Positions 4,320-62,347 of a DNA stretch of 64,000 bases are shown piece after piece. Made by a program: the position numbers and the translations under genes. The stretch is from Octopus vulgaris (taxonomy: Eukaryota): positions 85,436,001-85,500,000 of the forward strand of contig OX597822.1 in the NCBI GenBank assembly GCA_951406725.2, in the 5' to 3' direction. Under the pieces are notes generated by a model. The model was not told where the DNA came from. It did not search any database and saw only the letters and a list, made by a program, of their open reading frames with translations. Position 1 is the stretch's first letter; every line of letters begins with the position of its first letter.

Positions 4320-4620
4320 AGTCCTCGTCGCGTGTGGTGATTTGTGTGTCTCAATGACTCTGAGAACTTTGCCAACCGAGCGGAAGCTCCAGGTAGGGTC
4401 TTCGATGTTGGGTAAGCCAAAGGATAGAGGCCGAATTAATATGAATCATCTCTTCCTAAATGTTAAAAATGGGTTTACGTAGGAGCAGCAACCCTATCTA
4501 GAAATAAAAGCAAAGTTGCAGAAGCATGGATGATAATTCGAAACTTGAAAATCCAACAACAGCTGAAAGAGAAAAGCCTTCTCTCGGAGAAACACATGGG
4601 TCGGGTTATGAAGACAAAGG
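4320..4620 (+). mobile_element. RTE-clade LINE 5' UTR remnant
   Basis: TGTGTCTCAATGACTCTGAGAACTTTGCC...GCTCCAGGTAGGGTC...GGATAGAGGCC...GCAACCCTA resembles the 5' region of RTE/Expander elements. Recognised from memory, not searched. Confidence 0.55.
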
Positions 4621-5278
4621 TGGACAGGCAGAGGAAAAGAGGAGCCAGAGTGGAAAACAGAAGAGAAAAGTTGCCCGAGGTTTTTGCTCCATTGGGAGAG
4701 AAGGGCTTGAGTACTTCATTATAAATATATTTCATGTTACGCTGAGAAGAAGCGCACAGTACCAGAATATTTTCGACTCTAGTCAAATATAACAAACTAC
4801 TCGAAATCATTGTTAGACTCTCCGCATAAGTGGAGTCAAGACCTGACATCGAGTCGTATAAGTTGTGATAACGAAGTCAAATATTTCAGGTTTGCATAAC
4901 GTATAACAGGAGATGCATCCATTACGTAATACTTGCTTTAACTGATGCATTAGTCATACACATACGCATACAAATATTCATAAACAAGCAAATGCTTTAG
5001 CGATTCAAAAGTCCTTTGACAAACAACCCACTCCTAAATTCATTTTTCTGATATGGTAAGTTTTGTATAAGTTTAGGAATGAGGAAGCACTTTCGATATA
5101 ATCGTATGAAATGAAGAATAACTGACTTGAAGTGTTACCAAATAATCAAGTCTCACTGATTCTAGGTAATTTCACTCCCGATATTTTGACTCCGGTAATC
5201 TGACCCCTGGTAATTTGACTGTCAATCAGTTTCACTCCTGGTAATTTCACCCCTAAAATTATAGAAAAAAAACAATTC

Positions 5279-5554: not shown

Positions 5555-6880
5555 ACCTCCCGTTTTTAACAGTATCTGCGGAAGGAAGAAACTTGTGAAT
5601 AGCATGAATTACATATATGAAGCACAGAAACAAAATGCAGATGGATCTACGACTTACTGGAGATGCGAAATTGGTTCCTGTAATGCTCGAATCCACACCA
5701 TGAAAATTATACCATAATTAAGCACATTGGTGGACATCATCGTAATTCGTGTGCTTCAAAACCCAAAGTTCGCAAAACTTTAGCGGACTTGAAGTCACAA
5801 GCAGCTGCTTGCCAGGAATCTTCTCGTTCATTAATTGCGACTGTTTGTGAAAAGCTTGATGAAAATGAAAAGTCTCACATGCTGCCCTCGACTTCGTGTA
5901 TAACTCGCAATATAAGGAACTGGTGTCAAGCAAAAGCAAGTGCCCCTCCAATCCCTCAGAGTGGATTTGGTTATGAGATACCCGATGAATACAAGTTCTT
6001 AGATAATGGCGAACTTTTCTGGCAGTTTGATAGTAGTGAAACTGATGTAGACAGATTATTCGTCTTTCCAGCTGATAAAGGACTTGATGACTGAGTGAAT
6101 GTAAAACACTGGACAGGTGATGGAACTTTGAAGTGCTCCCCAACTATATTTCATCAGTTGTACATGCTTTATATTCAAGTGGGTCCATTCTGTGTTCCAC
6201 GATTGTTTGCATTACTTCCAAACAAAAATCAAAAAACTTACGTCAGCCTTTTTAATAAAGATAAATGAATTCTGTCAAGGGCTGAGCCCTAAAAATGTTA
6301 TGATGGGTTTTGAAAAAGCTCACATTAATAGCATTTTATCTGTGTATCCTAGAGCTTCCAATATGTACAGAAAAGTATGTGAATTTGACTTTAAGGAGAT
6401 ACCATTATGATAATGAATTTAGCATTAAAATCAAATGTTTTTCAGCGTTGGCTTTTCTTCCTCTCGATGATGTGATTGACGGATTCAAAGATCTTGTAGA
6501 TGATGGCGATCTTCCGCAAGAACTTGTGTTCTACTTTGAATTATGGTACATAGGATGCGTGCGAGGTAGAGGAATTAGACAACGAAGAACTCCTCCTTTG
6601 TTTCCCATTGATAGTTGGAATGTCGGTTTTAGAACAGAATCAGGTATGCCTCATACTAATAACCATTTCGAGGGATATCACAACGCACTACAAAGTTCTT
6701 TGACTTGCACTCATCTGAATCGATGGAAATTAATTCCTGCATTGAAAAAGAGAAGAACTTTTGGCACAACTGAGAAAGGTTGAATTTGATTGGGGTGAGA
6801 TCTGCGAGACCAAAAACAAAAAAGTATAAAGATATAAACTAACGGCTGCAGATAACCATTGAGCGACCTAGTCCCGAAAA
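5555..6880 (+). pseudogene. FLYWCH + MULE DDE transposase pseudogene
   Basis: FLYWCH-like GRKKLVNSMNYIYE...TYWRCEIGSCNARIHT; DDE-region WTGDGTLKCSPTIFHQLY, MMGFEKAHINS, FSALAFLPLDDV, YFELWYIG, PPLFPIDSWNV, HTNNHFEGYHN. Spread over several frames with stops. Confidence 0.88.
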
Positions 6881-61739: not shown

Positions 61740-61856
61740 TAGAATAAGTACTGGGCTTACAAAGAATAAGTCCCGGGGTCGAGTTGCTCGATTAAAGGCG
61801 GTGCTCCAGCATGGCCGCAGTCAAATGACTGAAACAAGTAAAAGAGTAAAGAGTAA
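61740..61856 (+). mobile_element. SINE family A 3' end
   Basis: AGAATAAGTACTGGGCTTACAAAGAATAAGTCC...CTGAAACAAGTAAAAGAGTAAAGAG. Confidence 0.85.
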
Positions 61857-61859
61857 TGA

Positions 61860-61906
<47 letters not shown>

Positions 61907-61964
61907 TTTATACACACACATATATATATATATATACATACTTTATTTAAAGCAGCAGAAAATT

Positions 61965-62020
61965 CAACAAAATCTGTTACTCTGAGTTTCTCGTTGCCGT
62001 TCATCAGACAGTTTTTGCTA
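61965..62020 (-). ncRNA. Type I hammerhead ribozyme
   Basis: UAGCAAAAACUGU-CUGAUGA-ACGGCAACGA-GAAA-CUCAGAG-UA/ACAGAUUUUGUUG: intact core, helix I with 12 of 13 pairs, GCAA-looped mini helix II, self-complementary helix III, GUA site (cut 61978/61977), AAUAAA downstream. Confidence 0.78.
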
Positions 62021-62052
62021 TACATATATATATACACACACACACATATAGA

Positions 62053-62108
<56 letters not shown>

Positions 62109-62217
62109 CATTTTAATAGTAATGGTATGACAACAAAAGAATGAATGAGACCGCGATATTATGTAAATAGAGGAATTTATCTGTAATATGAAATGTGACA
62201 ATTATTCGGTTGCCATT

Positions 62218-62276
62218 ATAAAACTCCGAGTTTCGGATATCAGGGCGGATGCCTACTCCGGTATCTCGTCAGTTAT
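62218..62276 (-). ncRNA. Type I hammerhead ribozyme with long helix II
   Basis: AUAA-CUGACGA-GAUACCGGAGUAGGCAUCCGCCCUGAUAUCC-GAAA-CUCGGAG-UU/UUAU: intact core, 4-bp helix I, helix III ACUC-G-GAGU, GUU site (cut 62222/62221). Confidence 0.62.
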
Positions 62277-62286
62277 CAAGAAAATC

Positions 62287-62347
<61 letters not shown>

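Follow-up and report, generated by a model that had tools for sequence, protein, structure and literature searches.

An 82-base hammerhead-bearing island in Octopus vulgaris as the probable truncated end of a Hydra-type Penelope-like element, and a possible record of copying in the ends of its family

The 64,000-nucleotide stretch of Octopus vulgaris DNA analysed here (hereafter the window) carries, inside a tract of (TA)n and (CA)n repeats, a short island that had been singled out from its letters as an ultra-short insert derived from a Penelope-like element (PLE), combining a minus-strand hammerhead ribozyme with a poly(A) signal. We located its features relative to core nucleotide C3, which is numbered 0 throughout and places the predicted cut after +29 (Table 1). 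The CUGAUGA/GAAA core is present where the original prediction had it and, as A17 lies at 61978, both analyses agree on the predicted cleavage site. All core positions (C3, U4, G5, A6, N7, G8, A9, G12, A13, A14, the A15.1-U16.1 pair and H17) are complete in the island, and the 13 positions of helix I form 12 pairs, two of them G-U, around a single A·A mismatch. Folding likewise bore out the two-base-pair helix II with its GCAA cap and A-A first pair, the palindrome and the AATAAA that follows it have the letters described, and TA/CA repeats do flank the island on both sides. What is missing is the paired closure of helix II at positions 10.1-11.1, usually G-C, which is A·A here. The island extends from -15 (or -13) to the first of two fixed 3' ends of its family, and its first two bases (TA) may be part of either the element or its target. 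On its 5' side, neither a partner arm nor a clear target-site duplication was seen, and no host gene was evident by eye among window ORFs of at least 130 amino acids.

Table 1. Features of the island and its flanks (positions within the window)
Feature	Position	Strand	Basis or remark
82-base island	61941..62022	minus	almost certainly a pLTR fragment, the 5'-truncated 3' end of a Penelope-like element of the Hydra clade
Helix I, 5' strand	62008..62020	minus	sequence and folding
Core C3-A9, CUGAUGA	62001..62007	minus	sequence and family conservation
Helix II: A10.1·A11.1 mismatch (62000, 61991), 2 bp CG/CG, GCAA loop	61991..62000	minus	
Core G12-A15.1, GAAA	61987..61990	minus	conserved in family copies
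Helix III palindrome, ACUC-A-GAGU	61979..61987	minus	forms only between two copies
Predicted cleavage site after A17, 61978/61977	61977..61978	minus	hammerhead numbering
Helix I, 3' strand	61965..61977	minus	folding
AATAAAG, fixed 3' end site 1 (+67)	61941..61947	minus	AATAAA itself at 61947-61942
(TA)n/(CA)n target, element's 3' side	61861..61940		repeat search
(TA)n/(CA)n target, element's 5' side	62023..62108		repeats from 62019

An Rfam scan, proposed as a check by the original prediction, gave no hammerhead hit at the gathering threshold or at E<=10, the folding energy of the island was no better than that of shuffles (z 0.08), and a loose core pattern matched the window nine times with overlaps, at 3 sites, against a mean of 5.3 in shuffled sequence.

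Several other repeats lie in the same window. At 62110-62288 on the minus strand (core at 62272), another island bounded by (TA)n derives from an older family of PLE type and has a CUGACGA core, a long G-opened helix II and an ACUC-G-GAGU palindrome; 2,167 candidates were found for its family, the best other copies being 88-91% identical and some of them arranged in inverted pairs. An abundant SINE-like repeat at about 61750-61855, which we take to be an octopus SINE, adjoins the insert, and related stretches occur in locus L034 and elsewhere in the window. Broken reading frames seen by eye on the plus strand at about 5700-6780 presumably resemble the transposase of a DNA transposon.

An exact pattern spanning the hammerhead core matched 3,708 places genome-wide and its backwards control none, so the motif did not arise by chance; the same count supplies the family copy number that had been named as a check on the original prediction. 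A pattern for the end of the tail, which many copies carry beyond the hammerhead, matched 5,704 places. In a DNA search of the species' own 2.8 Gb genome, in which the best 40 of 322 candidates were scored, 49 matches were obtained, and at least 25 matches were identical over all 83 bases, counting the window's own locus. Seven of these identical copies, solo inserts on one contig (L001-L007, contig C31), are alike in both flanks and were therefore multiplied as part of a larger duplicated segment; they do not count as independent insertions. The island is also identical in 82 of 82 bases to copies in four loci (L031-L034) that extend upstream into a common 3' UTR of about 1 kb. Three of them reach an ORF beyond it, which has the same orientation as the island and so upholds both the PLE origin and the minus strand of the original prediction. 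One of these loci, L031, contains at 4495-4830 on the minus strand a fragment of another GIY-YIG-like frame adjoining the element. Searching with the protein, we scored 89 places with 92-100% identity, in many of which the frame stays open for 727 codons. The complete unit in locus L078 measures 3,352 bp and consists of a hammerhead, the tail, an ATG at +205, an ORF of 711 amino acids, the 3' UTR and a further hammerhead.

By its YRDD motif and its predicted structure (pLDDT 83.6), for which telomerase reverse transcriptase 3du5 was the top fold match (E 2.8e-9), the single 711-residue ORF encodes a telomerase-like reverse transcriptase; Pfam and PDB sequence searches returned no match for it. 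A putative C-terminal GIY-YIG endonuclease was assigned by its motif, VVY...YTG...R...E...N, where relatives have YIG; it gave no profile match and is absent among the listed fold matches. The RWK, DKT and C-terminal CxxC and CxH motifs of the Hydra clade are all present. In the CxCx5C linker, 7 of 25 motif rows read CNC, 17 CNF and 1 CNS, some rows being one copy counted twice. Many intact young copies (L035-L046, L077-L086) have Phe for the second Cys of this linker, which was kept in all 15 aligned relatives. Insertions target (TA)n: TA repeats were assigned to 114 of 119 contexts at 3' end site 1 (those without the standard start of the tail) and to 115 of 121 non-internal contexts at site 2. 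Tandem pseudo-LTRs (pLTRs), an inverted 5'-truncated arm and the optional tail were all found in the family. Together with the preference for (TA)n, RWK, DKT, the linker and CxxC/CxH agree with the Hydra clade as defined by Craig et al. (PMC8557442), and on these motifs we abandoned Neptune, our first guess for the parent. The island is thus almost certainly the 5'-truncated 3' end of a Hydra-type PLE from a young family with many intact ORFs, its clade read from motifs. As such, it is an ordinary truncated copy, one of thousands, of a known class of element. Its value lies in the family, where the positions of the ends probably record how the elements are copied.

At their 3' side, copies of the family end at two fixed places, either after AATAAAG (+67, site 1) or after a tail of about 70 nt (+139, site 2), and both run directly into TA repeats. 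AATAAA ends one nucleotide before the site 1 junction, and poly(A) was found in none of 203 site 1 and 140 site 2 contexts (collected loci, deduplicated by flank), which tells against the poly(A) signal of the original prediction. In the anole PLE, two internal starts of reverse transcription have been demonstrated (PMC11167929), and by analogy +67 and +139 would be such starts. Given the fixed ends, the lack of poly(A) and the anole parallel, AATAAA fits a first 3' boundary better than a working poly(A) signal, although it may act as one in the full transcript.

To describe the 5' ends, we used contig C1, where 98 of the first 100 listed places and 16 near-matches at the same loci gave 114 mapped arms; the sampled junctions all lie within the first ~64 Mb of this one contig. 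Ends were set by greedy alignment, in which microhomology can move them by a few bases; values near -199 reflect an alignment break rather than real ends, and one arm at -49 was apparently mis-extended. Among 111 terminal arms, 42 ended at -21 to -11 and none at -39 to -22, while 28 ended at -10 to +24, none at +25 to +30 and 41 at -40 or beyond. This wall is also visible genome-wide, where 3,378 copies at -10 dropped to 1,673 at -21 (50% lost), and the copy in the window belongs to the same class. Seventeen arms ended at -14, at a CTAG palindrome. Nine further loci of the older PLE-type family next to the island, selected by score, gave no such wall, and most of them extend well upstream of the core. 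The anchor used for this first sample is insensitive to trimmed ends, and the cut site was therefore tested again with a tail anchor. In this second sample (the first 100 listed tail-end places), 15 arms were long, 20 ended at -21 to -11 and 3 at -23 to -22. With these 3, and with arms of the first sample that reach -18 and -19, the wall is not perfectly sharp. Only 3 of the 100 ended at +28 to +34, no more than in the neighbouring bins, and across the 5 nt upstream of the cut the genome-wide count fell from 4,440 to 4,191 copies (5.6%, point mutations included). None of the sampled copies begins at the cut site, and each one that reaches so far spans it; on this absent footprint, in genome counts and in both arm samples, we rejected cleavage as the origin of the 5' ends. 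A splice acceptor at TAG/C was rejected as well, since arms retain bases upstream of the AG and four sets of contigs listed no such joint. In 2 of 4 presumed-RNA runs the depth of the contigs dropped sharply on the upstream side of the hammerhead, and in the other 2 it did not; this measure cannot rank the parts of the element.

Both arms could be compared in 44 head-to-head pairs. Site 1 was combined with site 2 in 37 of them, 6 were ambiguous, 1 was internal and none was clearly same-site; by arm length, 30 pairs were short-short, 13 long-long and 1 mixed. Fold-back self-priming of the cDNA would give equal 3' ends in both arms and was discarded on this one-of-each rule. Self-priming on an antisense template has been described as a source of head-to-head palindromes (PMC3846280), and two starts explain the rule more simply. 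The junction of tail and 5' UTR that is typical of ORF-preceding pLTRs had 100 exact matches. Of the first 30 such pLTRs, 10 ended downstream of -10; the remaining 20 pass it, and not one of these stopped at the wall, a distribution that differs from that of terminal arms (Fisher p 7e-6) and disfavours a single class of template with a strand jump at -17.

The best explanation of the short copies, to which we give a probability of about 60%, is that they are run-off products of an uncut transcript copied from a fixed start past the hammerhead. An endonuclease would cut (TA)n, and both DNA ends would prime cDNA, using the two internal starts on RNA of one kind. Beginning just past the hammerhead, the enzyme would run off the 5' end of the uncut RNA about 85 bases on; transcription beginning within an initiator-like CCATTCT, close to A-17, would limit both cDNAs, and arms from the uncut template would be at most ~85 and ~155 bases long. 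The arms would then be joined to each other or to the target by microhomology, often at the CTAG palindrome. A precedent exists for a start site inside a pLTR. Against the model, no TATA box was found by eye at the expected distance, the wall is not perfectly sharp, and the older neighbouring family had none in its 9 loci. Long and full-length copies would come from a template without an end at -17, the simplest being a circle that arises when dimeric hammerheads cleave and ligate, a route put forward in PMC4209133, and the alternative multi-unit read-through. We infer two RNA templates: for the short copies an uncut transcript that would begin ~17 nt before the core, and for the long ones a circular or tandem molecule without a seam. 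More tentatively, and with the odds against its full form, a protein dimer may prime two cDNAs from two starts on one RNA, one per broken DNA end, which would account for mirror-image insertions tailed on one side only; the uncut capped transcript would yield only dead-end copies of 85 and 155 bases, and productive copies would derive from a hammerhead-made circle that lacks the transcript's 5' end. If true, the hammerhead would be a switch from an abortive to a productive template. The youth of the family and the sharp statistics of its ends allow predictions at the level of single bases, namely a transcription start at -17, reverse-transcription starts at +67 and +139, and a circle of 3,352 nt.

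The main rival, which we regard as rather unlikely, is that the wall marks an early stall, the reverse transcriptase, tethered to the structured pLTR RNA, often aborting on a long RNA at the 5' edge of helix I and long copies being escapes. By eye, the wall does match the 5' edge of an extended helix I, and stalling would account both for the lack of a stop on a second pass and for the joint failure of both arms. Against it, the 5' strand of helix I would already have lost its partner strand to copying, and identical junctions recur at A-17, an initiator-like position. A G precedes 5 of 8 clear stops at A-17, which hints weakly at copying of the cap but is explained by the partner arm too. Far less probable is a separate non-autonomous mini-element, akin to a SINE or retrozyme, with a short RNA of its own. 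Such an element would suit the 85 of 100 tail-anchored arms that end at -23 or further downstream; yet short and long arms have sequence variants in common, 5' ends below the wall are ragged, and among the first 100 listed matches there were no short-period tandem arrays, same-strand spacing being ~3.35 kb.

The original proposal that this insert is the best candidate in the window for an active ribozyme is not supported. We consider it highly improbable that the lone insert is a ribozyme that cleaves itself and has a functional poly(A) signal, and the single copy is predicted to be inactive. Its core is intact and helix I has 12 bp, natural hammerheads with helices II of 2 bp are described (PMC3088659), and a swapped dimer is feasible. 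Yet the monomer has no helix III (pairing probability 0.00, 1-nt loop; self-duplex -7.4 kcal/mol), so the lone copy depends on a dimer, which is barely favoured at -25.2 versus -24.6 kcal/mol for two monomers. The copy also lacks G10.1-C11.1, where it has A·A, the best-tolerated mismatch reported in PMC3088659 being U·U, and it spans its own cut site. In PMC4209133, a single minimal PLE hammerhead was not cleaved and dimers were cleaved little, and the anole PLE hammerhead needed protein (PMC11167929). The 3' junctions, moreover, lack poly(A), and the second PLE-type hammerhead, 265 bp away, has a longer, G-opened helix II.

Variation across the family was examined in 141 arms that carry the hammerhead, among which the youngest subfamily is over-represented, and the original prediction's worry that the core might be unconserved was not borne out, as it is conserved across family copies. 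A13, A14, A15.1, U16.1 and A17 were invariant in 141 of 141, position 11.1 was A in 98, G in 21, U in 17 and C in 5, and position 4 was U in 90 and C in 41. Lineage-level changes fell at position 4, N7, loop II, 11.1, the centre of helix III and the helix I mismatch, and the remaining core and paired positions had scattered changes only. That these changes avoid G5, A6, G8, A9, G12-A14 and the paired positions favours an active fold; the U4C change with which the older subfamilies spread (41/141) is reported to lower activity (PMC3088659) and speaks against it. Divergence from their own majority was 2.4% for copies with A-U at 10.1-11.1, 1.1% for A·G and 0.9% for A·A, which suggests that A-U, found only in the oldest subfamily, came first, followed by A·G and then A·A. 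As read from these alignments, the pattern is compatible with selection acting on the fold of master elements. PLE-type hammerheads whose helix I reads CCAC/GUGG and whose 10.1-11.1 position is A·C or A·G also lie in the upstream flank of L012 and the downstream flank of L025, so the A-led mismatch recurs in unrelated families of the genome.

Among known systems, the family most closely resembles the C-terminal EN+ PLEs of the Hydra clade (Craig et al. 2021, PMC8557442), which are described as having the same single ORF with RWK, DKT, CxCx5C and CxxC/CxH, a (TA)n target, a hammerhead in the pLTR, an inverted truncated arm and a tail. Hydra-2_Amil even has the same CTGT/ACAG start of helix I and an ACTC-N-GAGT palindrome. 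The octopus unit is longer, however (3.35 kb with a 3' UTR of ~1 kb, versus generally <3 kb), as is its tail (~70 nt versus 30-40), and many of its intact ORFs have CNF where the Hydra linker has CNC. The A·A-closed helix II of 2 bp is the shortest among the Hydra hammerheads compared, the 25 families listed there having at least 3 bp; by our own count, 15 of these 25 have U·U or U·C at 10.1-11.1 and none A·A. Hydra-1_Obim is visibly homologous by eye but represents a different family with another hammerhead sequence. The A-U-closed helix II with GCAA in some older copies equals, letter for letter, the loop-2 entry for Penelope-2_NV (PMC8557442 File S2); the mini-helix may represent what is left of a formerly longer helix II, its tip, unless the match is coincidental.

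With the minimal type I PLE hammerheads of Cervera and De la Pena (2014, PMC4209133), likewise described as mostly single motifs off truncated PLEs, the island shares topology, intact boxes, pLTR location and a palindromic helix III that needs a dimer. It differs in lacking their highly conserved G10.1-C11.1, in a helix II far below 6-8 bp and in a longer helix I. The role of PLE hammerheads and the origin of pseudo-LTRs, inverted arms and tails are stated to be open in PMC8557442, PMC11167929 and PMC2377424; we also drew on PMC13282606 and PMC6765202. In searches of the openly accessible literature, mostly at the level of listings, no paper on the 5' wall or the one-of-each arm rule was found. 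PAc Poseidon of Anolis (Frangieh et al. 2024, PMC11167929) is alike in its two reverse-transcription starts downstream of the hammerhead, which define the tail, in an AT-rich target cut on both strands and in the use of uncleaved RNA as template; it belongs to another clade, and the text consulted describes no 5' wall, one-of-each rule or two classes of template. Non-LTR retrozymes (Li, Clavereau and Pollet, bioRxiv 10.64898/2026.07.22.740005) are also short non-coding PLE pieces with a type I hammerhead. As described there, they form tandem arrays, whereas the island is a dispersed single arm, from a family whose same-strand neighbours lie ~3.35 kb apart and whose autonomous parent is identifiable.
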